Shown here in pieces: positions 1,560-48,009 of a stretch of DNA of 64,000 bases. The stretch is taken from IMG/VR virus record IMGVR_UViG_3300044681_000098, positions 9,749 to 73,748 of that record; one strand, given 5' to 3'. The stretch is from a virus. Under the pieces are notes generated by a model, which worked only from the letters and a program-made list of their open reading frames with translations, was not told where the DNA came from and did no database searches. The first letter of the stretch is position 1; the number at the start of each line of letters is the position of its first letter. Made by a program: the position numbers and the translations under genes.

Positions 1560-1635
1560 GCGGATGTAGCTCAGTTGGTAGAGCACCTGCCTTCCAAGCA
1601 GGATGTCGTGGGTTCGAGACCCATCGTCCGCTCCA
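1560..1635 (+). tRNA. tRNA-Gly, anticodon TCC
   Basis: 76-nt cloverleaf: acceptor GCGGATG/CGTCCGC, anticodon arm CCTGC-CTTCCAA-GCAGG, T-loop TTCGAGA, encoded CCA. Confidence 0.97.
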
Positions 1636-1655: not shown

Positions 1656-2522
1656 ATGAAAGTTGCGATCACCAGCGATATCCATCTCGAATTCGGAGAT
1701 TGGAATCCGTCAAACCCTGAGAACGCAGATGTTCTCATCCTTGGAGGCGACATTCTAGTTGCATGCGAACTGGAACGTCTACAAGAAGATTCTTACGGTA
1801 TCCTCGACCACTACAAAGGTGAGCGATACAGAGACTTCCTAATCAAATGTAAAGAAAACTATAAGCACGTGGTTTACATCATGGGTAACCATGAACATTA
1901 CCATGGCGACTTTGCTGTCACGTCTAAGGTTCTTCGCAAAGAATGCGATGATCATGGCGTTCACTTTCTTGACAATGATATGATCAAGATCGAAGATTAC
2001 ATCTTTATTGGTGGCACTCTTTGGACTGATATGAACAAGCGTGATCCTTTGACTCTTTATCAGATTCGAAAGATGATGAACGACTTCCGCACAGTTAACA
2101 ATAGTGATGAGGTTGTAAACTTCCGTGATACCGATGGTAAGTTTCATACTAGGGTTGCTAAATTCTCGCCTGAGAATGCAGTTGAGCAACACGAAAAGAT
2201 GCTTGCCTATATCGACAATCTCGTTAAGGTAGAGCCAGAAGCTAAGTTTGTTGTCGTTGGACATCATGCGCCTAGTAAGAAATCTACCCATCCTCGTTAT
2301 GCCAATGAGCAACTAATGAATGGTGGTTACTCGTCTGACCTAGATCAGTTTATTATTGATCGCCCACAGATCAAATTGTGGACTCATGGTCATACTCATG
2401 AACTGTTTGACTACATGGTTGGTGAAACAAGAATTGTTTGCAACCCTCGTGGTTACGTAAACTATGAGAGGGGATCTGATGAAGCAGAACCATACCTTGC
2501 AAAAGTTATTGAACTACCTTAA
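1656..2522 (+). CDS. calcineurin-like metallophosphoesterase
   Basis: SDIHLE, GGDI, GNHEHY, GHHAP and HGHTH motifs. Confidence 0.9.
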   Translation: MKVAITSDIHLEFGDWNPSNPENADVLILGGDILVACELERLQEDSYGILDHYKGERYRDFLIKCKENYKHVVYIMGNHEHYHGDFAVTSKVLRKECDDHGVHFLDNDMIKIEDYIFIGGTLWTDMNKRDPLTLYQIRKMMNDFRTVNNSDEVVNFRDTDGKFHTRVAKFSPENAVEQHEKMLAYIDNLVKVEPEAKFVVVGHHAPSKKSTHPRYANEQLMNGGYSSDLDQFIIDRPQIKLWTHGHTHELFDYMVGETRIVCNPRGYVNYERGSDEAEPYLAKVIELP

Positions 2523-4157: not shown

Positions 4158-4567
4158 TTGAGTGCCTAATCCTTGGCGATTCTATTGCCGTAGGTGTATC
4201 ACAGATTAAAAAAGAATGCGTATCTTTTGTTAAGTCTGGCATCAACAGTAAAACCTTCTATGAGAAGAACAAATCTCTTTTGGGGAAGCAGACTAATACT
4301 GGTATCACTATCATTAGCATTGGTCCAAATGATACCAAGTCTATTGACACGATTAAGTATGCGAATCTAATTCGAGAAAACATTAAGGGTAGAGTCTTTT
4401 GGATCCTACCCTCTCAAACAAAGAAGCCAGATAAGTTTCAAATTATTAAAGAGGTAGCTGCTGTTTGGGGCGACACTGTTATTGAAAGACCAGCGGATAA
4501 AATTTCCCCTGATGGTGTTCACCCAACATACGCAGGATACAAACAAATCGCAGAGATGGTGAAATGA
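4154..4567 (+). CDS. SGNH/GDSL hydrolase
   Basis: GDSIA, GxND and DGVHP blocks. Confidence 0.85.
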   Translation: MIECLILGDSIAVGVSQIKKECVSFVKSGINSKTFYEKNKSLLGKQTNTGITIISIGPNDTKSIDTIKYANLIRENIKGRVFWILPSQTKKPDKFQIIKEVAAVWGDTVIERPADKISPDGVHPTYAGYKQIAEMVK

Positions 4568-5061
4568 TTAAATTATACTTAGATATGGATGGTGTGCTCT
4601 GCAACTTTGAAGAAAAGTTTGCACCACTTAAACCTGCAGGTAAGAAATACGACAAAGAGATCTTTGCCAAGGCAGTAATGGAAGGCAAGATCTTCGAGAC
4701 TCTTGACTGGATGCCAAACGGTAAACGACTAATTGATGTTGTGCGCATGTTGCCTGTTACAGTTGAGATTCTAACTTCTGTTGGAACACACAGACCATTG
4801 CAAGCTGCTGAAGCTGCACGTCAAAAACAAAAGTGGTTGCATCAGCACAACATTCTTTACAAAGCAAACTTTGTGAATATGTTCTCAGAGAAAAAGAACT
4901 ACGCACACAAGAATACAATCTTGATTGATGATCGTCCAGATTGCGCTTTGCCCTTTACTTCTGCTGGAGGACATGGTATACTATACTCTGACAGCAAGCA
5001 TTCTGAAGCTGTTCAAGAGTTACAAAATCTAGTTCTTCAACTAAAGGCTATTCAAACTTGA
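4564..5061 (+). CDS. HAD-family 5'(3')-nucleotidase-like protein
   Basis: LDMDGVL, ILTS, K and LIDD motifs. Confidence 0.85.
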   Translation: MIKLYLDMDGVLCNFEEKFAPLKPAGKKYDKEIFAKAVMEGKIFETLDWMPNGKRLIDVVRMLPVTVEILTSVGTHRPLQAAEAARQKQKWLHQHNILYKANFVNMFSEKKNYAHKNTILIDDRPDCALPFTSAGGHGILYSDSKHSEAVQELQNLVLQLKAIQT

Positions 5062-5220: not shown

Positions 5221-5763
5221 ATGAACATCTTCTATCTTGACAACAATCCTAAAACCTGCGCACAAATGCATGTCGATAAGCATTGCGTAAAAATGATTCT
5301 TGAATATGCCCAACTTCTCTCTACTGCTCACCGTGTTCTTGATGGTACTCCTTCTGTGGTTCTCAGTGACAAAGGACGACGCAAAACAGTTCATACTTTG
5401 CCTGATCATCGTAACGATCTACTGTATAGTGCTACTCACATCAATCATCCTTCTGCTATTTGGGTAAGACAGTCTGAGCAGAACTATATGTGGTTGTGCG
5501 AGTTGCTAGAAGAACTTTGTGTTGAGTATACCTATCGTTATGGTAAGGTTCACAAGATCGAAGCCACTGGTTTGATGCAAACTCTAAAGAATAATTTCCC
5601 AACCAATATTCCTATTGGACCATTCACTGAGCCAACCCCAGCAATGCCTGATGACTTCAAAGTTGCTGGTAACTCTATTCAATCTTATCACAACTACTAC
5701 CTTGGTGCCAAGACTAGAATGTTTTCTTGGAAGAATCGAGAGACCCCATCATGGATTCTTTAA
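5221..5763 (+). CDS. pyrimidine dimer DNA glycosylase/endonuclease V-like protein
   Basis: MNIFYLD...DKHCVKMILEYAQLLST, HxNHP, EYTYRYGKVH and AMP motifs. Confidence 0.75.
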   Translation: MNIFYLDNNPKTCAQMHVDKHCVKMILEYAQLLSTAHRVLDGTPSVVLSDKGRRKTVHTLPDHRNDLLYSATHINHPSAIWVRQSEQNYMWLCELLEELCVEYTYRYGKVHKIEATGLMQTLKNNFPTNIPIGPFTEPTPAMPDDFKVAGNSIQSYHNYYLGAKTRMFSWKNRETPSWIL

Positions 5764-6332
5764 CTCTTTTTCCGACTAAGATAAGCATTTACTATAATGA
5801 GGCTCTAGCTAGAAAGATAGAACCACTCATTGACGAATACACCGCAAGAGGTGAAGCAATGATGGGTATCGATAATCACATCACTACCTATAACAATCCT
5901 GAAGAGGGTGCTAGGTTAAACACCGATGGTAGATTAGCGGAAGCATTCCAATGGTGTATGTCTACTGCTTTGGATGATTTTCATAACAGAGGGTGGGATG
6001 TTAAGAATATAAAATTCCAACCCCACTTCTTTGCCAATGAGATAAGACATGGTGGGTTCTTCCATAGACATGCTCATCCAAACGCTACTATCTCTGGTTG
6101 CTTCTATGTCAATGTTCCTGATGGCGCATCTGATATTATCTTTCATGATCCTCGCCCATATAAACAATGTGTCATGTTACCCTGTAGAGAAGGGTTCTCA
6201 GATCTTCTGGCTGATGAATACCCAATGAAGGTTAAGACAGGAATGTTGTTAATTTGGAGTTCATGGTTGGAGCATGAGGTGGTTCAAAACAAATCAAAGC
6301 TGCCAAGAAAAACTTTAGTGTTCAACATGTGA
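5751..6332 (+). CDS. putative 2OG-Fe(II) oxygenase
   Basis: HAHPNATISGCFYV, FHDPRP, WLEHEV and terminal R-x-T-LVFN. Confidence 0.85.
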   Translation: MDSLTLFPTKISIYYNEALARKIEPLIDEYTARGEAMMGIDNHITTYNNPEEGARLNTDGRLAEAFQWCMSTALDDFHNRGWDVKNIKFQPHFFANEIRHGGFFHRHAHPNATISGCFYVNVPDGASDIIFHDPRPYKQCVMLPCREGFSDLLADEYPMKVKTGMLLIWSSWLEHEVVQNKSKLPRKTLVFNM

Positions 6333-6645: not shown

Positions 6646-7419
6646 ATGGCTCGTACGGCTAAGAAACCATTAGTAGAACATGAAGACAGTGAGCCAACCC
6701 AAAAAGTCAGACCGATTAATAACTCACTAAGAGTTAGAATTGACGACCTAAAGACTTTTGAACCATTAACAGCGAATCAGAAAAAATTTTATGATGCCTA
6801 TAAAAGACAGGATTACTTCATCGCCTTGCATGGAGTTGCAGGAACAGGAAAAACATTTATTGCCTTGTATAAAGCGTTGGAGGAAGTTCTCGACAAGTCA
6901 AACCCATTCAACAAAATTATCATTGTCCGTAGTGCAGTCCCTTCTAGAGAAGTCGGTCATTTACCTGGAGACCTAAATGAAAAAACAGAAATCTACAGAC
7001 AGCCATACCAGCAAATCTGTTCCATTCTGTTTGGTAGACCAGACGCATACCAGAGACTCGAAGAACAGCACCACATTGAATTCATCTCTACCTCCTTTAT
7101 TAGAGGGATGTCTTTTGATGATGCAATTATTATCGTAGATGAAATGCAAAACTTAACATTTGAAGAAATTGATACTGTCATGACTCGTGTCGGTTATCGT
7201 TCTAAGATTGTTTGGTGCGGTGACTATCGTCAGACCGACCTAAATAAGAAGAAGAACGACATGAGCGGAATTTTAAGATTCTTCGACATTGCTATGCATA
7301 TGAAAGCGTTTACCAGAATTGAGTTTACGCCTGAAGATATCGTTCGTTCTTCTTTAGTTAAGGATTATATCCTAGCAAAATTAAAATATGAAGACTCAGG
7401 TCTTCACACAAATCAATAG
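6646..7419 (+). CDS. phoH: PhoH-family ATPase
   Basis: GVAGTGKT, GHLPG, FIRGMSF, DEMQN, MTRVG, GDYRQTD and DIVRS motifs. Confidence 0.95.
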   Translation: MARTAKKPLVEHEDSEPTQKVRPINNSLRVRIDDLKTFEPLTANQKKFYDAYKRQDYFIALHGVAGTGKTFIALYKALEEVLDKSNPFNKIIIVRSAVPSREVGHLPGDLNEKTEIYRQPYQQICSILFGRPDAYQRLEEQHHIEFISTSFIRGMSFDDAIIIVDEMQNLTFEEIDTVMTRVGYRSKIVWCGDYRQTDLNKKKNDMSGILRFFDIAMHMKAFTRIEFTPEDIVRSSLVKDYILAKLKYEDSGLHTNQ

Positions 7420-9172: not shown

Positions 9173-9263
9173 TTATTGGGTTTACTTATGGCTTCAATTT
9201 TATTATATGCCGTTCTTTGTGATGGGAGCAGTCAGTGAGCGTGGAAAAAACATATGTCCTTGA
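9138..9263 (+). CDS. 41-aa aromatic-rich peptide (not in ORF track)
   Basis: CAGGAG RBS; MHTEETINKTFDYWVYLWLQFYYMPFFVMG... Confidence 0.45.
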   Translation: MHTEETINKTFDYWVYLWLQFYYMPFFVMGAVSERGKNICP

Positions 9264-9411
9264 GTTGGTGCGATATAGAGACGCAGGGTTGCCAACGTAT
9301 ACTTGGTTCTACGTAATAGACAGTAGAGTAGTTAGTCCATACTTTGGCTCAGAACTAGAAGCTGAACAGTGGCTATTCAAAACTCTGAAACAAGATAACA
9401 CTGGGAGTTAG
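9241..9411 (+). CDS. 56-aa hypothetical protein (not in ORF track)
   Basis: GTG start; open frame fills the gap to the next gene. Confidence 0.5.
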   Translation: MEKTYVLELVRYRDAGLPTYTWFYVIDSRVVSPYFGSELEAEQWLFKTLKQDNTGS

Positions 9412-9415
9412 ATAG

Positions 9416-10216
9416 TTGACCCAAACGACTTACAAAACTATATTCGTCAGTGATGTGCATTTAGGTACACGTGATTCTCAAGCAGACAAGTTAAATAACT
9501 TTTTGAAACATAACACCTGCGAGACTTTATATCTCGTGGGTGATATTATTGATGCTTGGAAGATTCAACAAAACAAGTGGCGATGGAAACAGAGCCACAC
9601 AAATGTAGTTCGTAGAATTCTTGGTCACGCTAAACGTGGAACACGAGTTGTATATGTTGCTGGAAATCATGATGAATTTTTAAGACCGATGATTCCCTAT
9701 GGATTCTCATTTGGTCTTATAGAAATACATAATCAGACAGAACACATTGGTGTAGATGGAAAGAAATATCTTATAACACATGGTGATCTGTTTGATGGAA
9801 TAACAAGACTTGCTCCATGGTTAGCGTTTCTTGGTGACAAACTTTATGATTTAGTTTTAGATTGGAATTCCAAGTTTAATTGGGTTCGACGTAAACTTGG
9901 TTTTGGATATTGGTCATTATCAAAGTTCTTGAAACACAAAGTTAAGAAAGCGTCTGACTTTATGTTTCAGTTTGAAAAGAACATTACTGCATATTGTAAG
10001 AAACGTGGATTTGATGGTGTGATTTGTGGACATATACATCACGCAGAAATAAAAGAAATTGATGGTGTCGTTTATATGAACGACGGAGATTGGGTTGAAT
10101 CATGCTCTGCTTTAGTTGAACATCATGATGGTCGTTGGGAAATAGTAACTTGGACACAGGAGAGCGATAATGTGGATACTATTGATAATAGCAGTTCATA
10201 TAAACGATCCAAATGA
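9416..10216 (+). CDS. PlcP/LpxH2-like metallophosphoesterase (putative phospholipase C)
   Basis: SDVHLG, VGDIID, GNHDEFLR, HGDLFD, WLAFLGD, YWSLS, DGVICGHIH and NDGDWVESCSA; GNHD rather than the GNRD of true LpxH. Confidence 0.8.
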   Translation: MTQTTYKTIFVSDVHLGTRDSQADKLNNFLKHNTCETLYLVGDIIDAWKIQQNKWRWKQSHTNVVRRILGHAKRGTRVVYVAGNHDEFLRPMIPYGFSFGLIEIHNQTEHIGVDGKKYLITHGDLFDGITRLAPWLAFLGDKLYDLVLDWNSKFNWVRRKLGFGYWSLSKFLKHKVKKASDFMFQFEKNITAYCKKRGFDGVICGHIHHAEIKEIDGVVYMNDGDWVESCSALVEHHDGRWEIVTWTQESDNVDTIDNSSSYKRSK

Positions 10217-10343
10217 CATACCAGCAAAGATGACGTTACACTTACCCAATGAAAAAGAATGCATGCAGGCTGCAAAATCTCTTGAGTACGATTTGAAGTT
10301 TAAGCAGTTTAAGTTGGAGGCGACATGCTCTCAGAAAAGATAA
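10170..10343 (+). CDS. 57-aa peptide with N-terminal hydrophobic stretch and two Cys (not in ORF track)
   Basis: CAGGAG RBS; MWILLIIAVHINDPNDIPAK...ATCSQKR bridges the PlcP-like and GT2 genes. Confidence 0.6.
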   Translation: MWILLIIAVHINDPNDIPAKMTLHLPNEKECMQAAKSLEYDLKFKQFKLEATCSQKR

Positions 10344-11035
10344 CCATAGTAGTTCCCTGCAAGAATGAAGAAAACTATATCCATCATTTGCTGTATAGTC
10401 TACGCAAGCAGGACATTGGTCAGACACGCATCATCATAGCAGATGCCAGCACAGACAATACTAGAGCAGTGATCGAAGCCAACAAAGGCACACTAAACGT
10501 AGAAGTGATAGAAGGTGGACCTGTCAGTATTGCTAAGAATAATGGTGCTAGATTAGCAACTACACCTTACATTCTATTCATTGACAGCGATGTGCGTTTC
10601 TTCAAAGACACAGTGATACATGATTGTGTTCGCATACTGGAAGAAAAGCAATTAGACCTAATAGGATTGTACATCAAGTGTTATGACAATGACTTTGTAG
10701 CCAAGATAGGTTTTACTCTGTTCAATGCTATCAACGCTGTTATGCAATACTTCATTCCTTTCGCTGTAGGTGCATTCTTTCTAACACGCAGAGATAAGTT
10801 TGAAGAACTAGGTGGCTTCCCTGCTCGCTACGAAACATCGGAAGACTTTTTCCTAAGCAAGATGTATGATGTCAAGAACTTTACGCTTGTACATCACTAT
10901 TTTGGGCAGGACAGCAGAAGATTCAAGAAGATGGGCTACTTTGGTATGGCTTGGTATCTTATTAAAAACTTTTGGAATCGTAACAACCAAAAATATTGGG
11001 ATAGCATAGACTATTCCAAATATTGGGATAAATAA
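10325..11035 (+). CDS. family 2 glycosyltransferase
   Basis: IVVPCKNEE, DASTDNT, FIDSD (DxD), GGF...SED and DSRRF motifs. Confidence 0.9.
   Translation: MLSEKITIVVPCKNEENYIHHLLYSLRKQDIGQTRIIIADASTDNTRAVIEANKGTLNVEVIEGGPVSIAKNNGARLATTPYILFIDSDVRFFKDTVIHDCVRILEEKQLDLIGLYIKCYDNDFVAKIGFTLFNAINAVMQYFIPFAVGAFFLTRRDKFEELGGFPARYETSEDFFLSKMYDVKNFTLVHHYFGQDSRRFKKMGYFGMAWYLIKNFWNRNNQKYWDSIDYSKYWDK
11028..11034 (+). promoter_or_regulatory. late promoter-like motif upstream of the tmRNA
   Basis: ATAAATA about 6 nt before the presumed acceptor-piece start. Confidence 0.6.
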
Positions 11036-11040
11036 AAGAA

Positions 11041-11360
11041 TTGTTGTAATCCCTTCAAAGCGAAGGACTTCTGGACGAGGGTTCGATTCCCTCCATCTCC
11101 ACCAAAAGCATTCTATCCCCACCTGACGAGGAAGGATCGAAAGAACTAAAAAGAATGCTTCTGATGGGGATGATCTGGTTTCGACAGGGGTAGATAGCAG
11201 AGACGGCAACACGGTAGGCGATGACCGAAACAAGATTCCATAAGGAATAACTTGGATGACAAAGCAAATCAAAGTAAACGCAAACGAAGAAGTTTACGCT
11301 CTTGCTGCCTAAAGCAAGATGAGGTTTCGGCAGGTGTCCTTATAATCAAATCACCTGCCA
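11041..11360 (+). ncRNA. ssrA: circularly permuted (two-piece) tmRNA; tag ANEEVYALAA
   Basis: T-arm GAGGG-TTCGATT-CCCTC plus CATCTCC-A-CCA (11077-11104) precedes the 5' acceptor strand GGGGATG (11166-11172); 7-bp acceptor stem with G3-U70; tag frame 11280-11312. Outer boundaries approximate. Confidence 0.93.
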
Positions 11361-11381
11361 CTTATTCTTTTAGGGGGATTT

Positions 11382-11639
11382 ATGCAAAAAGTATTAGTAG
11401 GTATTCTCGCAGCACTATTATCATTATCAGTGTTTGCTGCTGAGCCAGTAAAGAAAAAAGAGCCAGCAAAGAAACAAGCTACAACGCAAAAGGCACCAGC
11501 TAAAAAAGCTGATGCCCCTAAACATGCTGACGCAGAAACTCAAAAATCAGTAATGGCTAAAGCAAAAGAAAAGATGGCTGAAAAGAAAAAGAAACAAGAG
11601 GAAGCTGCTGCTAAGAAGAAGCAGCAACCTAAGAAATAA
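11382..11639 (+). CDS. exported Lys/Ala-rich low-complexity protein
   Basis: signal-peptide-like N-terminus ending VFA-A, then a K/A/Q-rich basic tail. Confidence 0.7.
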   Translation: MQKVLVGILAALLSLSVFAAEPVKKKEPAKKQATTQKAPAKKADAPKHADAETQKSVMAKAKEKMAEKKKKQEEAAAKKKQQPKK

Positions 11640-12186: not shown

Positions 12187-12597
12187 TTAGTCCTCTATCT
12201 TCTTTGGAGTTGGTCTTTGATACGGTGAAGTTGGTGGTGGAGGTGGTGGCGTTGGCGCATCATTCTTTTTAGATTGTGAGTACGCATTTGCACCAAAGAA
12301 TGCTGCTACCAAACCAGCGATAGCTACAAAGTAGGTTGGAGCAATATCACCAATGATTGTTGCTGCTCTATCAAGTCCGAAGAATGATGTAATCATGATT
12401 GTAGTTGGATACAGTAACATACCCCACAAAGCAAACCAAGCCATCTTACGCATGGCATCTCGTTGAGCATCTTGGTCTTCTAGTTCCCTACGCTTAAATT
12501 CAAGATACATATCCAATTCATCTTGGGAAACGTGTCCATCGCCGTTGGTATCTGCTGCTTCCAATCCTTCTACTGTTACTTTATGTTTATTGTTCAT
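12187..12597 (-). CDS. EF-hand plus 2-TM membrane protein (holin-like topology)
   Basis: DTNGDGHVSQDE canonical EF loop; two TM helices; Pro-rich tail. Confidence 0.75.
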   Translation of the reverse strand: MNNKHKVTVEGLEAADTNGDGHVSQDELDMYLEFKRRELEDQDAQRDAMRKMAWFALWGMLLYPTTIMITSFFGLDRAATIIGDIAPTYFVAIAGLVAAFFGANAYSQSKKNDAPTPPPPPPTSPYQRPTPKKIED

Positions 12598-14201
12598 TTC
12601 TTCTCCCTATTATATTGTTGCTCCACCATTCTATCCCAAAGAACTTCAGAAGCTAATCCCATTCTTAGTGCGCTCTTGTTTTCTTTAATTCTAACTTTGG
12701 CGTATATCTCAGTGGCTTTATAAAAATCGGCATCGGTTAAAGTCTTGCTTGTATAGTTTGAAAACCCTTCAACTGCTCCGAGTGATGATAGTTTATCATT
12801 TTCTGCTTTCTCCTCTGGTGTCAATTCTCTAGCAGCAACTGATTGTGCGCTTGATGTTGCACCAGAAGAAATAGATCTTTGGGTAGCAGATGCTACAGCT
12901 TGCGACTCTGCTGATGATGTTGAGTTTGTCGAACTACTTGTATCCATTGCAGCAGCTGCTGCTTGTTGAACAAGTTCAGTGTTTCTTCTTGCTGTCGCTG
13001 CAGGTGATGTCATGTTTGCTGGTGAGTTCATATTTGAAGCTGCAGACGATGATGAAGTAGTAGACGGAAGTGCGCTACCTCCAGTTGCTGCTGTTCCACC
13101 TGCTGCTACGCTGTTTGATACTACACTCATAATTTGACTAACGCTAAGAGAGGTTCCAGGTTGTGTCTGGTTTGATGATGACGCTGCTGTTTGTTGTTGA
13201 CTACTTTCAGTAGATGATGCAGTCGTCTGCTGTTGAGTGGTATCTGTTGTTGCTGCTTGCTGAGTAGTTGTTTCTGTTGTCGCAGAAATTGTTGTTACTT
13301 CTGGTGTTGGAACCGCAAAGGTTTCAGCTACCACTGTAGTTGTAGTAGAAACATTAGATGTGTTTCCTGTAGTCGCTGCGGATTGAGTCGTAGTACTCGA
13401 AGTTGCACTGGTTGTGGGTGTGGTTGTTCCTCCAGTTGCAACACTCCCCCCAGTAGTTGTGCTCGTTGTTGTGTTACCAATATATGTGGAACACGATGGG
13501 TCGGTTACAGGGATTTTGGTGCATGGGTCTTCCTTGACAGGAGCCAGTGACCAATTCAAAGAGAAAGAATTTAGTCTAAATTCTGGACCATAGTATCCAG
13601 CCCAGTATCCAGCATCTTGCCCTCTAACTGAGAACTGGACTTCAGATAAGTCTGCCCCAAGATATGATTTACTGAATACTTGCGTTCCGCTATAATCATA
13701 CCACTGCCCTGCTAGAAATTGAGAGTAATCATACGTGTATGATTCAACTACCGTACCAACTTTGTCTTTGATCAGAACAGTTACTACTAATGGGTCTTGT
13801 GCTCTTCCTTGCCCACTTTCTGTATTAGCGTTCTTCAAAGACCAACTGTAGTTATACCCATCAACTTGAATACCAGTTTGTTTCAATGCTTGATTGATTG
13901 CCCAAGTTTGGATAGCGATTTGGTTTGTGTATCCGAAACGCATAACTCCACTACCATTTTCAATTTGTAGTTGACTTCCTCCACTGTAGCCATTCCACCA
14001 TCCTTGGTCGACACAATATACGCCTGTGTTTACACTCCATGCTGAGCATGAATTGTTTACTAAGTTTCCAGTAGTACCAGATGTTGGTACTGCTGTGTCT
14101 TGTGCTGTTGCTGACTTAGAATAAAATGAGCAACAAAACGCCAAGACCAATACCAGACCAGAAACCTGGATCAATCTTTTTGAGCATTCCATCTTTTGCA
14201 T
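12594..14201 (-). CDS. exported protein: aromatic beta-rich domain plus Ser/Thr/Ala stalk
   Basis: signal/TM near the N-terminus, GQDAGYWAGYYGPE, DPC...DPSC and a long low-complexity region; start uncertain. Confidence 0.75.
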   Translation of the reverse strand: MQKMECSKRLIQVSGLVLVLAFCCSFYSKSATAQDTAVPTSGTTGNLVNNSCSAWSVNTGVYCVDQGWWNGYSGGSQLQIENGSGVMRFGYTNQIAIQTWAINQALKQTGIQVDGYNYSWSLKNANTESGQGRAQDPLVVTVLIKDKVGTVVESYTYDYSQFLAGQWYDYSGTQVFSKSYLGADLSEVQFSVRGQDAGYWAGYYGPEFRLNSFSLNWSLAPVKEDPCTKIPVTDPSCSTYIGNTTTSTTTGGSVATGGTTTPTTSATSSTTTQSAATTGNTSNVSTTTTVVAETFAVPTPEVTTISATTETTTQQAATTDTTQQQTTASSTESSQQQTAASSSNQTQPGTSLSVSQIMSVVSNSVAAGGTAATGGSALPSTTSSSSAASNMNSPANMTSPAATARRNTELVQQAAAAAMDTSSSTNSTSSAESQAVASATQRSISSGATSSAQSVAARELTPEEKAENDKLSSLGAVEGFSNYTSKTLTDADFYKATEIYAKVRIKENKSALRMGLASEVLWDRMVEQQYNREKK

Positions 14202-15030
14202 GTTTTACCTTTGTTGGATCTTCGCCATTTTTAATTGCATCCTGAACATTCTTAAGATAATCTTGATTGTCTTTCCATTCAACGAAGTCAGGTCTTAATG
14301 CTGGCGCAGCTGCCCAACCTGCTGCTGCTTTTGGACCAATCTCGCCTAAGAATGGGCAAGGTGTTCCAGCCATTTCCATCGCTTTGAAAATTCTTTCATC
14401 TTGACACATAACTGATACTGCTGCAACTTTCATTCCCATATCATAAAGTGTTTTGCTTAGTTTCAATCTTTCGCAATTCATATCTCTTACAGTACTACCA
14501 CCTGCGATACCTAGGATCTGAGTTTGCACTGCACCAGAGATTCCAGTAGTACATAGATCGTTATTGTTTGACATGATCGCTGGAGCAATAGCACTCGCTG
14601 GAGGAGATTTAATGTTTTGCGTAGTCTCTCCAGAGTTTATCTGTCTAACTGTGCTATCGTTCTGGTTTATATTTGTGTTGGTAGCTGTGGAACTGTTCAC
14701 GTTATTGTTATTATTTGTGTTCGTGTTCGTCGAGTTCACAGTTTGGTTAATAGTACTGTTGGATGTTTGATTTACGTTACTGTTTGAGGTAGAATTGATA
14801 GTCTGATTGATCGTGTCATTGTTGGTATTGATGTTTGTGTTGGTGCTCGTAGACGTTGAGTTTACGGTCTGGTTAATGGTATCATTGTTGTTGTTAGTAT
14901 TCGTACTAGTCGAAGTGCTAACATTGTTGTTATTATTGGTATTTGTAGTTACTATCTCGGTCACCTGTGCGTGAGCGAAATTTGCTGCCACCAATAATAA
15001 GGCAGTTACTGCTAGTTTTGCATTCATCAT
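14116..15030 (-). CDS. exported Asn/Thr-repeat protein with Cys-containing domain and C-terminal TM anchor
   Basis: signal peptide AHA-Q; N/T/S repeats; C-terminal FWSGIGLGVLLLILF; AAGGA RBS. Confidence 0.8.
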   Translation of the reverse strand: MMNAKLAVTALLLVAANFAHAQVTEIVTTNTNNNNNVSTSTSTNTNNNNDTINQTVNSTSTSTNTNINTNNDTINQTINSTSNSNVNQTSNSTINQTVNSTNTNTNNNNNVNSSTATNTNINQNDSTVRQINSGETTQNIKSPPASAIAPAIMSNNNDLCTTGISGAVQTQILGIAGGSTVRDMNCERLKLSKTLYDMGMKVAAVSVMCQDERIFKAMEMAGTPCPFLGEIGPKAAAGWAAAPALRPDFVEWKDNQDYLKNVQDAIKNGEDPTKVKHAKDGMLKKIDPGFWSGIGLGVLLLILF

Positions 15031-40281: not shown

Positions 40282-43200
40282 ATGGCTATTAACTTTAACG
40301 TCGCACCGTATTATGATGATTATGCTGATGAAGATGGATACTTGAGAGTCCTGTTCCGACCTGGATATGCTATTCAGGCTCGAGAACTAACTCAGCTTCA
40401 AACTATCCTGCAGAAACAAGTAAGTCGCTTCGGTGATCACGTCTTCAAGAACGGCTCTATGGTTGTTCCTGGAGGCGTGAACGTGGACAACTTGGTCCAC
40501 TTTGCTAAACTTGACACTTTGTTCGATAACCAATCAGTTTCTTCATACATTGATTCTTTTAGAAATAAAATTATCACTGGTGTTGAATCTGGTGTTAAGG
40601 CACTTGTTATCGACACAAGCAACTGTGAGTGTATGGTTCCAGAAGATGGCGATACTCCAACTCTTTATTTCAAGATTGAACAGACAGGTGGCGATGGAGA
40701 AACCAAGAGATTTATTCCTGGTGAATCTATTGTTGCCTATGAAGATGACAACTCAACTACAACAAACTATCGTTTAACCGAAGATCAAGTCGGAGACATC
40801 TACGTCAACGTCAGATCTTTCGGTGACGGTGGTGTCCCTGCTACATCATATACTAAGAATCCAGTAAGCGACGTTCTGGGTTACTCATATGCTGTTGAAG
40901 TAGAACAGGGTGTTTACTACATTGACGGATTCTTTGTTCAGAACGAAGAACTTCACTTATATGTTGGTCGTTTCCAACAAAACCCAACATGTAGGGTTGG
41001 CTTCAAAGTTGAAGAACAAATCATCACACCTGAAGAAGAGCCAGCATTATCGGATAATGCTCAGGGCACAACTAACTATGCTGCTCCAGGTGCTCACCGT
41101 TACAAGATTAACCTTTCTCTAGTTAGACTACCACTAGATTCAACTGACGACATTAAGTTCATCGAACTCGTTCGTATCGTTGATGGTCGTATTCAATCTA
41201 AACTCGAGAAATCATCATATGCTGAACTAGAGAAGACACTTGCTCGTAGAACCTTCGATGAGTCAGGCAACTACGAAGTTAACAAGTTTAAGCTAACAAC
41301 TAGAGAGCATTTGAACTATGATGGTGGAGGTGTTTACCCACCAGTCCCTACAGATTCAGCTTTAATTGATGGTCAAACATATGGAGACATCGACAAATTT
41401 GTTGTTGCTGTTTCTCCAGGTAAAGCATACGTCCAAGGTTTTGAAATTGAATCAACTGCTACTCAGTTTATCCCTATCGACAAGGCTAGAGAAAATTCAG
41501 TAACAGGAGATGAAGGTGGTCACATCATTCGTGAAGATGACTATCCAATCCAAACACCTATTGGAAACTACGTTATTGTAGATAATGTGTTTAATTTCCC
41601 AGAAAGCACATTCCCTACTGTCAATCTATATTCAGTATCAAGAAAACCACCAAACGGAACTACGATAACTGATGGTGTTGCTCCAGATAGCACTACTAAG
41701 GTTGGTACTGCTAGAGTTAAATCATTCCAATTACATTCTGGAACATACAACGGAGATGCGTCTCAGTTCAAACTCGCATTGTTTGATGTTCAGATGAGCA
41801 CCAATAATACTACTGGTCTCAAGTATGTCTTTTCAGATACTGTAAAATCAGTTGCTTTGGATTCGAATGATAGCAACATATTTACTGCTGATATTGTTAC
41901 AACTGAACTTGGGATTATCGGTTCTGCTGATGTCTCAAATGCTTCTGATTCTGTAACAGGTATTGGTACTTTGTTCCAAGACCAAGTGTCAGTTGGTGAT
42001 GTTCTTTACATTGACGGAAATAAAGTTGGTGTTGTTGCAAGCATTGAATCAAACGTAGCCCTAACTTTAGAAAACGCTGCTGATGATACATATTCAGGTA
42101 TTGTTGGCGTTGCAAGAGCAATCATTGAAGACCAGAGATATGAATCTTTAATCTTCAAATCAGAATTCAAACCTCTCAAGACATTGAGAGGTGTAGACGC
42201 TAACGGTAACGACACAGTTGACTCTTCTGTATTAACAGTTAGACGTCAGATTACAAACACGTCAGATAGCCAAGGTGGCTTGTGGTCTTACCAGTTGACT
42301 TCATCTTTTGAAGCATTCCAGTCAACCCAAGATTTATCTAACTATACTTTATTCTATACCCACCCACTAACTGGATCTAGACGTTTCGTTGAGATTACTT
42401 CTAGCCAATTATCTCTGTCTACCAACAACAGAGAAATTACAATCACCAACCCTAACATTATTGCTTCTCAAGAATATACTCTCCTTGCTAGCGTTGAGCA
42501 AAGAAAAGCGACAGCTAAAGAAAGAATTAAGACTCTCAACACAGATGAGCAGTATACAATTACTAGCAAGAAGTCTGTTACAGAGAAAACCATTCTGCTA
42601 CCTCATGCTGACGTACTGAGAATCAAAGACATTAGAGTAAATCCAGGAAACTTTGATTCTTATGTTGAGTTAAATTCTGTTAGCGTGTTGAACAAGTATT
42701 CATTTGACAATGGTCAAAGATCTACACATTACCAGAAAGCAAGTATTAGTCTGTTGCCTAACGTATCCCCTCCATCTGGGGCTATTAAAGTCATTTACGA
42801 TTACTTCTCTTACAGTGGTAACGGTAACTATTTCTCTGTTGATTCATACACTGCTACCATCGACGATGACACCAATGACTTCACATATTCTGATATTCCA
42901 TCGTTCTCTGTTAGAGGTAGTGATGGTGTAACTGAAACATTATATCTGCATGATGTTATTGACTTTAGACCAGTTGTCGAGGGGTTGAACACATTCACCC
43001 CAGACATTCCAAAAGTTGGTTCTTCTTTTAGCACAAGCATTGCATACTACTTACCACGTTTTGATAAGATTAGCTTGGATTCTATTGGTAGATTTGTAGT
43101 AACAAAAGGAATTCCTGATCTAGATCCCAAAGAACCAAAGGATCCTACTGAGGGAATGGTAATGGCTACCATTTATGTTCCTGCGTATACAAAGAACGTA

Positions 43201-46200
43201 AGCGACATCAGAGTGTTCCAGCGTGACAACAAACGCTACACAATGAAAGAGATTGGTAACCTAGAGAAGCGTATTCAGAACTTAGAATACTATGTTTCTC
43301 TAACACTACTAGAGCAAGAAACTGCGTCATTGCAAATTAAGGACGCACAAACAGGTCTAGACAGATTCAAGAACGGATTCATTGTTGACCAGTTCACAGG
43401 ACATGGCGTAGGTGATGTTCAGAATATTGATTATAGAATCGCTGTTGATTCTGAGCGTAATGAACTACGCCCAATGCACTTTACTGATGCGTTAGATATC
43501 GTTGAAGATGTAAACTCATCAGATGAACGTCTTGCCACAAATTACAAAAAGTCTGGTGATATTATTACCCTACCATATACAGAAAACCTGTATATGTTTA
43601 ACCCTAACGGCACTAGAACTATTGACGTTAACCCATACAAGATTGGTGCGTTCAAAGGTGAGATTGTTCTAAACCCAGAAGGCGATAACTGGAAAGACAC
43701 AGATCGTCGTCCAGACTTACAAGTTACAGATGACAACAACTTTGATGCTATTAAATTCTTAGCTGATGAGTTGGGTGTCACAGGAACTGTTTGGAACGAA
43801 TGGCAAACAACTTGGACTGGTTCTTCAACAACTACTAGAACTTGGCAAACTGGTGACCCAACTCGTCGTCGTCAGATTGTTACTGGTTACCAGCAAACCA
43901 CTAGAGTTGATACTGGTGTACAATCTAGAACTGGTATTAGAACTTCGGTTCAGTCTTCAGTGAACACAGAAGATTATGGTGATAGAGTTGTTGACGTTTC
44001 TTTTGCTCCATATATGAGAGCAAGACCAGTCACCTTTGTCGCAAAGAACTTGAAAGCTAATACAAGATACTACTCTTTCTTCGACAAGCAAGCAGTTTCA
44101 TCTTACGTAACACCAGCTGACGTATTTAAGGTTACTCGTGCTGCTGGAACTACGTTCATGACATTTGACCCTGCTGAACTTTCTGACAGAGTTATTGTTG
44201 GCGATACGGAAAGAACCGTAGAAGGTGCTGCAGAACCAGCGTTCCAAATCGGTGAAGTGTTGAGACAGGGTGTTCATACTCCTTGCACAATTCAATCCAT
44301 CGCAAATATTACTGCTGATGCTGGCGCAGGTAACTTCACTGTTACTGTTGACACTGTAGCGAACTTGGCTGTTGGTCACCAAGTTAGACTGTACAACATG
44401 GCTCCAGTTAGAGTCGTTCCTGCTGTTAGAACCAGAAGACCAAATGGTAGTTACCAGACACAAGCTAGTATGACTGTTCCTCTTGGATCAACATCTAGAC
44501 AGTTGAACAACAGAAGATTCGTAATCACAGCAATCAATGGAACTACTTTAACATTAGCTAATATCAATGGTGGTGTTATTGGTAAGTTTGACGCATACTC
44601 AAGAACTGGAGCATATGCTGGATCTGATGGCGCTAAACTTGTTAGGGTTCGTGCTTCTGCTGTTGTTGCGTTTGCTGGCGTAGTAGACGATGAGGATTCA
44701 AACGGTCCAGTTGTTCAAGACGTCCATGTAGTTAACATAAAAGGTGGATTCGCAATTGGAGAAACCTTAGTTGGTAAGATTGTATTTAATAATGCTGCTA
44801 GAAATACAGTAACGCTAACTGCCATTAATGGAAACTCTACAGTTGGCACATTACCAGTTTACAAACAAATCGGCGATGCCGTAAGATCTGATACATGGGG
44901 TTCTTGTGTTGGTGTGTTCAACATCCCTAACGACGACACTCTGAGATTCAGAACTGGTGAACGTGAGTTCAAACTGACAGACAACATCTCCAATAGTGAT
45001 GCTGATTTTGACTCTAAGGGAACTGTGCTGTATTATTCACAAGGTGTTACACTTTCTAAAGAAAGAACAATTGTCAATAGCAGACAGGCGAACTTCGTTC
45101 AAGACAGATTGTATGAATCAATTCCAGTAAGACGTGTTTCTACCTCTACTAGACAGTTGTATTCTTACTATACAGGTCACGACCCAGTCGCTCAGACATT
45201 TACTGTCCAATCTGAAGGTGGTGTCTTTATTACTGGCGTCGATCTATATTTCTCTGAAGCTGGAAACAGACCAACTACTGTTGAATTTAGAAACACAAAC
45301 AATGGTGTTCCTTCTTCTAAGATTATGCCATTCACAACTGTGACTAAGACTCCACAGCAGATCAATGTGTCTGATGATGGCTCTGTTGCAACAAGATTCA
45401 CTTTCGCTTCGCCAGTGTATCTACTAGACAACGAAACTTATGCGTTGGTTGTTAAGACTGACGAACCTGGAGCGCAGGTTTGGGTTTCCGAAGTCGGTCA
45501 AACAGATATCTTGACAGGCAACATTGTTACTTCCCAGCCACTAACTGGTTCGTTGTATCTATCACAGAACAGTAAAGAATTTGAGATTAATCCACTTCTA
45601 GACATGAAGTTTAGAATGTATGCAGCTGAGTTTGATACTACTCAAATTGCAACAGTTAACTTGAAGGCTGAACACGCTAGAAACATCAACTTGCCAGCTA
45701 ACCCATTCCAGATTAGTCAAGGAACTGACATCGTTAGGGTTCGTGCACCAAGACACGGTTTCCAAGCAGGTGATTATGCTTACATCTCAGGTGTAGAGGA
45801 ATTCCTTGATCCAGATACGCAAGAGTTGAAGCGTTATGGTACTGCAAGTAGCGAATATGGTATTCCTGCTTCATTATTAACTGGTCCAGTTCAAGTTATT
45901 GCTGAGGGTTTGGACATCGATTACTTCTGTTTTGTTCTTGACACCACTGATGACTTTATTGATCCAGATACTGGATTGAGCAGACCAATTCGACTGATAA
46001 GCAACGCTGCTGGAACAGAAAACGAATACAATTCGTTAACAAGCAGCTATACCGTAACTGTTCAACAGATTCTTGATGAGTTCGTTAACGGTAACTACGG
46101 TGGCACTGGTGTTATTTGCTCTAGACAGTTGTTACTCGATACTCTATTCTTGAAGAGCGATAGCGTTGTTCCAACAGGAACACGTTTGGAGTGGTCTGTT

Positions 46201-48009
46201 CAGGCAACTAACGAAGATAACTCTACTACTGGTTACAAGAACATTTCTGAGAATACAAACTTCTCGTTCGGCACCAGAAAAGTTATTCGCTCATATGAAA
46301 ACGAAGCGATCATTTCCGCAGCATCTGGAGTTGTGAGACCATCGTTGTCAATCAGAGCTAAATTGTATTCTGATAACAAGAATGTATCTCCAGTTCTTGA
46401 TTTGGCTAAGTTGTCTTCTTATGTTGTTCGCAACCTTGTTGACAATCCTACTGAAGAACTTGTCAACATTAATGGCGTTGATGACACAACATTGCTGGCA
46501 GAAGGTTCTGTAACAGCAGCAGATATCGGAACACAAAACGGAACAGGAACTGTTGTCTCTTATTACCTAACCAACGTGTTCGGTACTGATGTGACATTGA
46601 GTGAGTTCACTTCATCAGGAAGCGATTGGTCGATCACAAACTCCGATCCAAGTGCATATAACTGGTTGGGTACTGGTACTTCTCAAACATCAACACCATG
46701 GAAATACTTGTCTGTTGGTGATGAGTTGTACTCAACTTCTGCTACTGAGGCTCTTGAGTCTGCAGAGAAATATGGTAGAGTTAAGTCTATTAATGCTTCG
46801 ACTCTAGTGTTGGAAAATTCCAACAAGCAAGTCACTGCAGGAAACTTCCCTCAATTCAAGGTTCTATCTAAAGTTATCCGTGGCGTTGGAACTGACTTCT
46901 CTAGAGAGATTCCAGCAGGAAGTGCTGTCAACGGAGCGAATGGAACTTTTGTAGGTATCGTGAACAGCGTTCAGTCTGCGACAAAAGCTACTCTATTAAG
47001 TTTCGCAGAATATGCAAACATTGATGGTTCAGGTGTTGGTCTATCGTTCCAAACTGAAACTAAGGAAGGTAAGTTGACATTTGGTAATACTGAAGATGGT
47101 GTTTATGGTTTAATTTCTACCAATATCGATACAGCAGACAACTTACTTGCATTAGCTAAAGCAGGTAAATATCTGTTGCTTGAAGGATTTAACGCTGTAT
47201 TGAATGGTAAGTATCTGGTGCATAATGTTGATGTTAGCAGCGATATCAGCGTATATGTTGGTAATGCTGATGATGATAAAGTTGTTATCAAAGTAACCCC
47301 TGCGTTCAGTATTGCCTCTGGTAAAACTTGGACTCTAGATTTGGTAAATGACTATATCTACTTCCAAGGAGAGGGTTTTGTTACTGATGCAGCTGGAACA
47401 GGCAAGACTGTTACATTCTCTGGTGCATCCTTAGCGACCCAAGCAGCTGCTGGCGATATTATCACTCTAAAATCTAGCGGAGTAGGTTCGTTTGAAGGCG
47501 ATGATTCTCAGATTGGAGTTGTTGATGTTATCAATACTGCAAACACTCTAACTCTTGTAGACAATGCCGAGGAAGCGATTGCAACTCCGACTGTTTACTA
47601 TATCAGAAAGAATGCAGCAAATTACAGAATCGCTCAACTTGATAAATTCGTTGAAGACTGGGCACCAGTAGGCGCAACCAACTACGCCAACTATGTAACA
47701 AGACCGTTGGTTCTTTCGTCACCTGCTGACTCATTGAAGATCTTGTTTGACGCAAGCGTTCCAGTCGGAACAGTTATCAAGATTTACTATAAGACTTGGG
47801 ATGGTGCAGACGATCCTGCTACTCTAAACTATGTTGATAGCGGATTCGCTACAAGCACTTCTGACCCAGAAGATACGTTTAGCGAGCGTTCTTTAGATAT
47901 CACTGATATTGCTCCATTTAAGAATGCTGTTGTTAAGATTGTTATGAAGGCAGATAACCCAGCTATCGTTCCTAAAGTTAAGAATCTAAGGATTGTTACT
48001 CACTCATGA
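40282..48009 (+). CDS. very large virion structural protein (VrlC/DUF4815-like)
   Basis: NVAPYYDD, RVLFRPGYAIQARELTQLQ, APGAHR, LARRTFDESGNY, DRFKNGFIVD and DPVAQTF. Confidence 0.8.
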   Translation: MAINFNVAPYYDDYADEDGYLRVLFRPGYAIQARELTQLQTILQKQVSRFGDHVFKNGSMVVPGGVNVDNLVHFAKLDTLFDNQSVSSYIDSFRNKIITGVESGVKALVIDTSNCECMVPEDGDTPTLYFKIEQTGGDGETKRFIPGESIVAYEDDNSTTTNYRLTEDQVGDIYVNVRSFGDGGVPATSYTKNPVSDVLGYSYAVEVEQGVYYIDGFFVQNEELHLYVGRFQQNPTCRVGFKVEEQIITPEEEPALSDNAQGTTNYAAPGAHRYKINLSLVRLPLDSTDDIKFIELVRIVDGRIQSKLEKSSYAELEKTLARRTFDESGNYEVNKFKLTTREHLNYDGGGVYPPVPTDSALIDGQTYGDIDKFVVAVSPGKAYVQGFEIESTATQFIPIDKARENSVTGDEGGHIIREDDYPIQTPIGNYVIVDNVFNFPESTFPTVNLYSVSRKPPNGTTITDGVAPDSTTKVGTARVKSFQLHSGTYNGDASQFKLALFDVQMSTNNTTGLKYVFSDTVKSVALDSNDSNIFTADIVTTELGIIGSADVSNASDSVTGIGTLFQDQVSVGDVLYIDGNKVGVVASIESNVALTLENAADDTYSGIVGVARAIIEDQRYESLIFKSEFKPLKTLRGVDANGNDTVDSSVLTVRRQITNTSDSQGGLWSYQLTSSFEAFQSTQDLSNYTLFYTHPLTGSRRFVEITSSQLSLSTNNREITITNPNIIASQEYTLLASVEQRKATAKERIKTLNTDEQYTITSKKSVTEKTILLPHADVLRIKDIRVNPGNFDSYVELNSVSVLNKYSFDNGQRSTHYQKASISLLPNVSPPSGAIKVIYDYFSYSGNGNYFSVDSYTATIDDDTNDFTYSDIPSFSVRGSDGVTETLYLHDVIDFRPVVEGLNTFTPDIPKVGSSFSTSIAYYLPRFDKISLDSIGRFVVTKGIPDLDPKEPKDPTEGMVMATIYVPAYTKNVSDIRVFQRDNKRYTMKEIGNLEKRIQNLEYYVSLTLLEQETASLQIKDAQTGLDRFKNGFIVDQFTGHGVGDVQNIDYRIAVDSERNELRPMHFTDALDIVEDVNSSDERLATNYKKSGDIITLPYTENLYMFNPNGTRTIDVNPYKIGAFKGEIVLNPEGDNWKDTDRRPDLQVTDDNNFDAIKFLADELGVTGTVWNEWQTTWTGSSTTTRTWQTGDPTRRRQIVTGYQQTTRVDTGVQSRTGIRTSVQSSVNTEDYGDRVVDVSFAPYMRARPVTFVAKNLKANTRYYSFFDKQAVSSYVTPADVFKVTRAAGTTFMTFDPAELSDRVIVGDTERTVEGAAEPAFQIGEVLRQGVHTPCTIQSIANITADAGAGNFTVTVDTVANLAVGHQVRLYNMAPVRVVPAVRTRRPNGSYQTQASMTVPLGSTSRQLNNRRFVITAINGTTLTLANINGGVIGKFDAYSRTGAYAGSDGAKLVRVRASAVVAFAGVVDDEDSNGPVVQDVHVVNIKGGFAIGETLVGKIVFNNAARNTVTLTAINGNSTVGTLPVYKQIGDAVRSDTWGSCVGVFNIPNDDTLRFRTGEREFKLTDNISNSDADFDSKGTVLYYSQGVTLSKERTIVNSRQANFVQDRLYESIPVRRVSTSTRQLYSYYTGHDPVAQTFTVQSEGGVFITGVDLYFSEAGNRPTTVEFRNTNNGVPSSKIMPFTTVTKTPQQINVSDDGSVATRFTFASPVYLLDNETYALVVKTDEPGAQVWVSEVGQTDILTGNIVTSQPLTGSLYLSQNSKEFEINPLLDMKFRMYAAEFDTTQIATVNLKAEHARNINLPANPFQISQGTDIVRVRAPRHGFQAGDYAYISGVEEFLDPDTQELKRYGTASSEYGIPASLLTGPVQVIAEGLDIDYFCFVLDTTDDFIDPDTGLSRPIRLISNAAGTENEYNSLTSSYTVTVQQILDEFVNGNYGGTGVICSRQLLLDTLFLKSDSVVPTGTRLEWSVQATNEDNSTTGYKNISENTNFSFGTRKVIRSYENEAIISAASGVVRPSLSIRAKLYSDNKNVSPVLDLAKLSSYVVRNLVDNPTEELVNINGVDDTTLLAEGSVTAADIGTQNGTGTVVSYYLTNVFGTDVTLSEFTSSGSDWSITNSDPSAYNWLGTGTSQTSTPWKYLSVGDELYSTSATEALESAEKYGRVKSINASTLVLENSNKQVTAGNFPQFKVLSKVIRGVGTDFSREIPAGSAVNGANGTFVGIVNSVQSATKATLLSFAEYANIDGSGVGLSFQTETKEGKLTFGNTEDGVYGLISTNIDTADNLLALAKAGKYLLLEGFNAVLNGKYLVHNVDVSSDISVYVGNADDDKVVIKVTPAFSIASGKTWTLDLVNDYIYFQGEGFVTDAAGTGKTVTFSGASLATQAAAGDIITLKSSGVGSFEGDDSQIGVVDVINTANTLTLVDNAEEAIATPTVYYIRKNAANYRIAQLDKFVEDWAPVGATNYANYVTRPLVLSSPADSLKILFDASVPVGTVIKIYYKTWDGADDPATLNYVDSGFATSTSDPEDTFSERSLDITDIAPFKNAVVKIVMKADNPAIVPKVKNLRIVTHS

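Follow-up and report, generated by a model that had tools for sequence, protein, structure and literature searches.

The locus lies in a 64,000-nt stretch (hereafter the window) of the IMG/VR virus record IMGVR_UViG_3300044681_000098, rated 44% complete by CheckV. The window derives from a genuine T4-like myovirus, as gp32-, gp5-, gp6-, gp8- and gp48-like proteins were identified by PHROG searches, and the sequencing runs containing it are labelled as freshwater metagenomes. The module comprises a metallophosphoesterase gene, a small bridging ORF and a GT2 glycosyltransferase gene (Table 1). The phosphoesterase gene is preceded by a GGGAG Shine-Dalgarno sequence 8 nt upstream of its start, the bridging ORF overlaps the first gene by 47 nt and the third by 19 nt, and the glycosyltransferase gene starts 109 nt after the phosphoesterase stop codon. 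A PhoH-like gene (PF02562, 4.1e-46) is located 2.0 kb upstream. The three ORFs, the overlapping bridging ORF and the upstream PhoH, together with the GNHD, WLAFLGD, YWSLS and GDWVESC motifs of the phosphoesterase, had been noted in a first-pass annotation and are confirmed here.

Table 1. Coordinates of the module and of neighbouring features in the window
Coordinates	Strand	Feature	Length	Start codon
6646..7419	+	PhoH-like ATPase; context only, not a consistent part of the module		
9235..9411	+	ORF of unknown function, not conserved with the module	58 aa	
9416..10216	+	PlcP-family metallophosphoesterase (predicted Mn-dependent phospholipase C)	266 aa	TTG
10170..10343	+	Conserved small ORF of unknown role, optional accessory	57 aa	
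10325..11035	+	Small GT2 glycosyltransferase (predicted GT-A fold, inverting-type)	236 aa	

The three ORFs of the module are real genes rather than chance ORFs. At least 597 IMG/VR contigs encode relatives of the phosphoesterase (tblastn E <= 1e-3), the 80 best being 80-93% identical, thousands of protein clusters match it, and 478 contigs encode relatives of the GT2; this wide distribution of the module in viral contigs was not noticed in the first-pass annotation. Estimates of dN/dS between the window and a relative are about 0.05 for the phosphoesterase, 0.09 for the GT2 and 0.15-0.24 for the 57-aa ORF, although dS is saturated. In contrast, the 58-aa ORF ending 5 nt before the phosphoesterase start has no Pfam or PHROG hit and no tblastn match in any of the 160 related loci. 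A DNA-level search of the phage collection matched only the tmRNA.

The phosphoesterase (Pfam Metallophos, 5.9e-12) belongs to the PlcP family and not to LpxH, as the first-pass annotation had proposed. In alignment A1 it is 51% identical to the P. aeruginosa PA3219 orthologue, 44% to the S. meliloti SMc00171 orthologue (53.9% and 47.9%, respectively, by tblastn) and only 22% to E. coli LpxH, while characterised PlcPs are themselves only 46-47% identical to each other (PMC8528852). The PlcP references were recovered from mislabelled PLSDB records, the P. aeruginosa one being identified by its Agt1 and cyaB neighbours, and LpxH was taken from E. coli K-12. The metal-binding residues D13, H15, G42-D43, G83-N84-H85-D86, H122, G205-H206 and H208 are invariant in alignments A1 and A3. 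The blocks GNHDEFLR, WLAxLGD, YWSLS, CGHIHHAEI and GDWVESCTA are shared with the PlcPs, whereas LpxH has GNRD and lacks the others. In an IQ-TREE phylogeny of 53 sequences the LpxHs split off with 100/99 support, and the window protein lies inside the clade containing both characterised PlcP orthologues (96/79).

An alternative assignment as LpxH (UDP-2,3-diacylglucosamine hydrolase), with the gene pair acting in LPS or lipid A biosynthesis, is what automatic annotation suggests: JGI names for homologues say LpxH, and KEGG-based virome papers list viral lpxH under LPS biosynthesis. It is also true that the best PDB matches of the AF2 model are LpxH, sharing a calcineurin-like core with a helical cap inserted after the HGD motif. 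Nevertheless, the protein scores 52.6 and 39.8 bits against LpxH equivalog cut-offs of 134 (NF003743) and 190 (TIGR01854). One gammaproteobacterial genome carries both a true LpxH (249 bits, cut-off 134) and a separate 59%-identical homologue flanked by PhoH2 and a GT4. Moreover, the closest cellular homologues are alphaproteobacterial and occur in genomes where the LpxH model finds nothing above its cut-off. The LpxH reading is thus contradicted and very unlikely, and the current counting of viral "lpxH" among LPS-biosynthesis auxiliary genes appears to be a systematic misannotation.

The GT2 is linked to PlcP in relatives essentially without exception. Among 86 close viral-clade loci, 79 are not cut off downstream, and 74 of these have a glycosyltransferase right after PlcP: this GT2 in 42 and an Agt-like GT4 in 32 (38-46% identical to the Agt references, P. 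aeruginosa Agt1 and the L094 GT4), with no locus containing both. Of the 80 best GT2 loci, 77 have PlcP directly upstream, 2 have it about 700 nt upstream and 1 is cut at the contig end. Of 80 divergent loci, with GT2s only 32-57% identical, 79 abut a 35-48% identical GNHD phosphoesterase, in either gene order (27 and 52 loci). Partner type requires about 12 switches on the PlcP tree, of which 2-3 are forced by well-supported branches. These data give direct comparative support to the first-pass suggestion of a GT2 in place of Agt. Some phages, however (Mosig, S-SRM01 and those designated L010 and L067), carry PlcP without an adjacent glycosyltransferase. A role of the phospholipase as a lysis aid degrading the inner membrane at the end of infection, with the glycosyltransferase as unrelated cargo, could be considered because phospholipases can damage membranes and a lysozyme-like gene lies 1.2 kb upstream. 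This is very unlikely, as unrelated cargo would not show a near-universal linkage independent of gene order, and the gene does not sit in a holin-endolysin cassette in most relatives.

The GT2 itself matches PF00535 (1.3e-20) and PF13506 (GT21, 2.1e-9), and its DxD motif (D87, D89) and E173-D174 are conserved across 65 family members. The AF2 model (pLDDT 93.5) has a generic GT-A fold whose best PDB matches are TarS, AvpGT and PcManGT, which says nothing about the acceptor; sequence and profile searches of the PDB likewise gave only generic GT2 hits. The nearest curated family, TIGR04283, is matched below its cut-off, and the ESM Atlas returned mostly viral neighbours and automatically named CrtQ-like clusters, which are leads only. 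The protein has no transmembrane segment, only a hydrophobic helix (residues 124-140, mean hydrophobicity 0.55) and an aromatic, basic C-terminal stretch (residues 198-227, with 7-8 aromatic and 3-5 basic residues and a low helical hydrophobic moment). GT2-family diacylglycerol glycosyltransferases do have precedent in the cyanobacterial monoglucosyl-diacylglycerol synthase (PMC3276260) and Mycoplasma genitalium MG517 (PMC6506492), the latter binding the membrane monotopically without transmembrane helices; the window protein is much shorter than MG517 (236 against 341 aa). It is conceivable, though unlikely, that the GT2 acts on another lipophilic or membrane-bound acceptor, such as a host monoglycosyl-diacylglycerol, a polyprenyl phosphate or a carotenoid-like lipid, with PlcP contributing something else. 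The nearest curated or automatically named relatives (TIGR04283, HpnB, CruG and CrtQ-like clusters) act on varied lipophilic acceptors, and the best structural match by TM-score is a polyprenyl-phosphate mannosyltransferase. All of those matches are weak or below cut-off, while strict adjacency to PlcP across deep divergence and replacement by an Agt-like GT4 in the same slot point to a shared substrate stream.

Taken together, these observations are best explained, with moderate confidence and in the absence of enzymatic evidence for either protein, by a phage-borne membrane-lipid renovation module. The PlcP-family enzyme would cut the head group from host glycerophospholipids, leaving diacylglycerol in the membrane and releasing a soluble phospho-head group. 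The GT2, as inferred from gene context, would then transfer a sugar from a nucleotide sugar onto that diacylglycerol, giving a phosphorus-free glycolipid, and thus do the job that the GT4 Agt does in bacteria and in sister phages. The inferred net effect is that lipid phosphorus becomes available for phage nucleotide synthesis in phosphorus-poor fresh water, while the membrane stays intact until lysis. It should be noted that PlcP releases phospho-head groups and not phosphate, so that a phosphatase is still needed, and none was identified in the module. If the module works as inferred, phages not only import phosphate but mine the host's own membrane phospholipid, which would represent a new class of auxiliary metabolism.

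Phosphorus scavenging as the selected benefit is inferred. The homologue in Pelagibacter phage Mosig (50% identical) sits next to a phosphate ABC transporter (pstS-like) gene, and the module is very common in contigs from lake and freshwater samples. The proximity of PhoH, taken as a cue in the first-pass annotation, is weak support, since PhoH lies within 4 kb of the PlcP gene in only 4 of 80 relatives. No Pho-box-like site was found near the genes (5 matches in the window against 8.9 expected by chance), although the host and its Pho box consensus are unknown and phage genes need not use one. The T4 late-promoter motif TATAAATA is not upstream of the module, and sigma-70 and terminator scans were not above shuffles. 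With the same chemistry, the altered envelope could instead block superinfection, change receptor display or stabilise the membrane during the latent period. Lipid renovation changes membrane protein content and may affect phage receptors in P. aeruginosa (PMC9804370), and frequent swapping of the partner glycosyltransferase would be expected if the product matters at a contested surface. This alternative remains possible but less likely, as the products are bulk membrane lipids rather than surface polysaccharide.

The closest known system is the bacterial PlcP-Agt lipid renovation pathway (S. meliloti SMc00171; Phaeobacter MED193; P. aeruginosa PA3219-PA3218; B. cenocepacia BCAL2364-2366). 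As in P. aeruginosa, Burkholderia and a Ruthturnera genome, a glycosyltransferase gene follows PlcP directly, often overlapping it. The module differs in being carried by lytic T4-like phages, in lacking dagK and in having a GT-A/GT2 partner that is not orthologous to the GT-B/GT4 Agt. Because GT2 enzymes invert, the product would probably be a beta-linked glycolipid, whereas GT4 gives an alpha-linked one. No PlcP-GT2 pairing was found in 74 bacterial loci or 401 sampled Alphaproteobacteria. A host donor was also rejected: all hits above 66% identity in "bacterial" genomes lie on MAG contigs of mutually inconsistent taxonomy that carry the phage cassette, and true cellular homologues reach at most 60% identity. 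The GT2 would represent a previously uncharacterised glycolipid synthase family defined purely by its phage context. It is tempting to speculate, although this reading is doubtful at present, that it is a virus-restricted family of inverting diacylglycerol glycosyltransferases that has repeatedly displaced the host-type Agt. Infected cells would then fill their membranes with a beta-linked glycolipid the host itself never makes, which could serve both phosphorus release and exclusion of competing phages. Compared with the phosphorus-stress auxiliary genes of cyanophages and pelagiphages (pstS, phoA, phoH), likewise carried by T4-like aquatic phages, the module would act on the host's own lipid phosphorus pool rather than on uptake from outside.

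The 57-aa ORF is present in 36 of 80 close loci, beside either glycosyltransferase type, and has only a weak PHROG hit of unknown function; the ORF after Mosig's PlcP is unrelated to it. Its 33 distinct homologues share a hydrophobic N-terminus, a P.D.PG block, LKF..FK and two conserved Cys.

The three open reading frames reported in the first-pass annotation, which had proposed a PlcP-like phospholipase linked to a GT2 glycosyltransferase through a small overlapping frame, are present on the + strand, and the first of them contains GNHD, WLAFLGD, YWSLS and GDWVESC exactly as had been noted. The window is part of a 73.7-kb IMG/VR virus record that CheckV rates 44% complete and carries homologues of T4-type gp32, gp5, gp6, gp8 and gp48, so this is a real T4-like myovirus.

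Coordinates of the PlcP-GT2 module and of other features in the window and in related loci (L numbers denote related loci; positions are those of the window unless a locus is named)
Location	Strand	Feature	Description
9416-10216	+	PlcP-family phosphoesterase	266 aa; TTG start with GGGAG 8 nt upstream; matches Pfam Metallophos
10170-10343	+	Small ORF	57 aa; overlaps both of its neighbours
10325-11035	+	GT2 glycosyltransferase	236 aa; Glycos_transf_2 at 1.3e-20 and, more weakly, GT21
6646-7419		PhoH	
11000-11403	+	Two-piece (permuted) tmRNA	Rfam beta_tmRNA (RF01850) at 139.8 bits; ARAGORN tag ANEEVYALAA; 5' end overlaps the last 24-36 nt of the GT2 gene
1560-1635	+	tRNA-Gly(TCC)	
1656-2522	+	Second, unrelated metallophosphoesterase	288 aa; phrog_1649 at 9.5e-52
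4564-5061	+	NT5C-like 5'-deoxynucleotidase	Upstream in the same gene block
5727-6332	+	2OG-Fe(II) oxygenase	Upstream in the same gene block
12594-14201	-	ORF with signal-peptide-like N-terminus	Very long Ser/Thr/Asn-rich low-complexity region; no family hits
14116-15030	-	ORF with signal-peptide-like N-terminus	Very long Ser/Thr/Asn-rich low-complexity region; no family hits
40282-48009	+	Giant ORF	2575 aa; structural region
50282-60493	+	Giant ORF	3403 aa; structural region
L074:5977-6654		BPL_N (amidotransferase-like) gene	Directly after the glycosyltransferase
L016:4728-5627		RimK-type ATP-grasp gene	Between PlcP and the GT4
L060:4898-5788		RimK-type ATP-grasp gene	Between PlcP and the GT4
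L002 (Synechococcus phage S-SRM01) 4998-5702		PlcP-like gene	38% identical

The phosphoesterase is a PlcP and not an LpxH. Against the two LpxH equivalog models of NCBI it scores 52.6 and 39.8 bits, where the cut-offs are 134 and 190, and by sequence it reaches LpxH entries of the PDB only through its N-terminal half, at E of about 1e-4. Named references for comparison were recovered from public records: a P. aeruginosa record in which the gene is followed by a GT4 and cyaB, the PA3219-PA3218-PA3217 arrangement described previously (PMC8528852), an S. meliloti chromosome, filed as a plasmid, with the SMc00171 orthologue, and E. coli K-12 for lpxH. It should be noted that some PLSDB "plasmid" records (NZ_CP042268.1, CP090106.1) are really chromosomal, one being a 3.7-Mb S. 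meliloti replicon labelled pSymB, while P. aeruginosa "plasmids" carry the PA3217-PA3219 region. In the alignment the window protein is 51% identical to PA3219, 44% to SMc00171, 49% to the homologue of Pelagibacter phage Mosig and 58% to a Ruthturnera homologue, but only 22% to E. coli LpxH; characterised PlcPs are themselves only 46-47% identical to each other (PMC8528852). The blocks GNHDEFLR, WLAxLGD, YWSLS, CGHIHHAEI and GDWVESCTA are shared with the PlcPs, whereas LpxH lacks them and has GNRD instead. In a 53-row IQ-TREE analysis three LpxHs are cut off by a 100/99 branch, and the window protein sits inside the clade that contains both characterised PlcPs.

The distribution of paralogues points the same way. 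One gammaproteobacterial genome has a true LpxH (249 bits) together with a separate homologue, 59% identical to the window protein, flanked by PhoH2 upstream and an overlapping GT4 downstream, and in three Hyphomonadaceae genomes the LpxH model finds only the PlcP-like gene, below cut-off. Of 401 sampled Alphaproteobacteria, 145 have a homologue, usually a single one and mostly at 44-60% identity (one of these, G245, is an unpublished genome on which no claim made here depends). The best PDB matches of the AF2 model (pLDDT 79, with the cap region at low confidence) are LpxH, so it has a predicted LpxH-like architecture, a core plus a helical cap inserted after the HGD motif.

At least 597 IMG/VR contigs encode relatives of the phosphoesterase, the 80 best being 80-93% identical, and more than 8000 protein clusters match it. 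The viral sequences form one clade with 100/98 support. Hits above 66% identity in "bacterial genomes" all lie on MAG contigs labelled Haliscomenobacter, Polynucleobacter, Fischerella, Bacteroidia or Gammaproteobacteria (loci L085-L090), which carry the same cassette and are most simply explained as phage contigs binned by mistake, likely contaminating the MAGs. The nearest true cellular homologues, in Hyphomonadaceae, are 54-60% identical. Protein identity stays at 80-93% while synonymous sites are saturated, giving dN/dS of about 0.05, and the enzyme is therefore under strong constraint in phages.

The glycosyltransferase is the informative part of the module. Among 86 viral-clade loci the gene directly after PlcP is this GT2 in 42 and a GT4 in 32, the latter with GT4 Pfam domains and 38-46% identity to the Agt references (P. 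aeruginosa Agt1 and the GT4 of locus L094). Seven loci are cut off within 400 nt, three of these showing a partial GT2, and five have neither glycosyltransferase, although three of those five have under 1 kb of downstream sequence. No locus has both types, and both partner types occur with and without the 57-aa ORF. The two deepest viral branches (loci L089 and L090) and the nearest bacterial operons have the GT4. On the PlcP tree the partner type needs about 12 changes, of which 2-3 are forced by well-supported branches, and near-identical PlcPs carry different partners. Further genes may belong to the module, as a BPL_N gene recurs directly after the glycosyltransferase in 18 related loci, including L074, and a RimK-type ATP-grasp gene lies between PlcP and the GT4 in two.

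The association also holds in the reverse direction: of the 80 best GT2 loci, 77 have PlcP directly upstream, 2 have it about 700 nt upstream and 1 is cut at the contig end. Viral GT2s only 32-57% identical to this one, fetched through a 44%-identical representative, abut a phosphoesterase 35-48% identical to that of the window in 79 of 80 loci, upstream in 27 and downstream in 52, and all distinct full-length copies read (39) have GNHD. In contrast, none of the 74 bacterial PlcP loci fetched has this GT2, and a family profile finds only weak, non-adjacent hits in the 401 Alphaproteobacteria. The GT2 is thus an obligate partner of PlcP, found only in viral contigs so far, and interchangeable with Agt, which is strong context evidence that it consumes the PlcP product.

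The AF2 model of the GT2 is confident (pLDDT 93.5) and shows a predicted GT-A fold, for which Foldseek returns generic GT2 enzymes, namely TarS, AvpGT, TarP and PcManGT, the last with TM 0.72. D87-x-D89 and E173-D174 are conserved in 65 family members, and the nearest curated family, TIGR04283, is matched below its cut-off. There is no transmembrane helix, only a hydrophobic helix at 124-140 and a C-terminus rich in aromatic and basic residues. GT2 enzymes that glycosylate diacylglycerol are known, including the cyanobacterial MGlcDG synthase and the monotopic Mycoplasma MG517. As GT2 enzymes generally invert and GT4 enzymes retain under the CAZy convention, the GT2 and GT4 versions would be expected to give different anomers.

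A phosphorus link is suggested but not shown. The PlcP of Mosig lies beside a phosphate ABC transporter gene, and the stretch analysed here occurs in freshwater metagenome runs. Against it, or neutral, are the following: PhoH, which the first-pass annotation had pointed out upstream of the module, is near PlcP in only 4 of 80 relatives, no Pho box or late promoter was seen to precede the module in motif scans, and PlcP would release phospho-head groups that still need a phosphatase. Altered surface properties, also raised in that annotation, or altered membrane properties remain a live alternative purpose. A cyanophage, S-SRM01, carries its PlcP-like gene among hli, psbA and ferredoxin genes with no adjacent glycosyltransferase; cyanobacterial membranes are already mostly glycolipid.

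The bacterial PlcP-Agt pathway is well established (PMC8528852), whereas in the literature searched no paper joins PlcP with auxiliary metabolic genes, or phospholipase and lipid remodelling with phage auxiliary genes, and virome papers list viral lpxH under LPS biosynthesis. The module represents a phage-borne version of this pathway with a new partner enzyme family, widespread and currently misannotated, and the interpretation in the first-pass annotation of a GT2 acting in place of Agt is supported as far as sequence can take it, although both enzyme activities and diacylglycerol as the GT2 acceptor are inferred.

Regarding the genomic surroundings, the betaproteobacterial type of the tmRNA overlapping the GT2 gene hints at the host class, and similar tmRNAs occur in Stenotrophomonas, Xanthomonas and Pseudomonas phages. 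The two minus-strand low-complexity ORFs coincide with a strong negative AT skew, and the two giant ORFs are presumably fibre or virion proteins. Like the window, Mosig has a 2OG-Fe(II) oxygenase near its PlcP.
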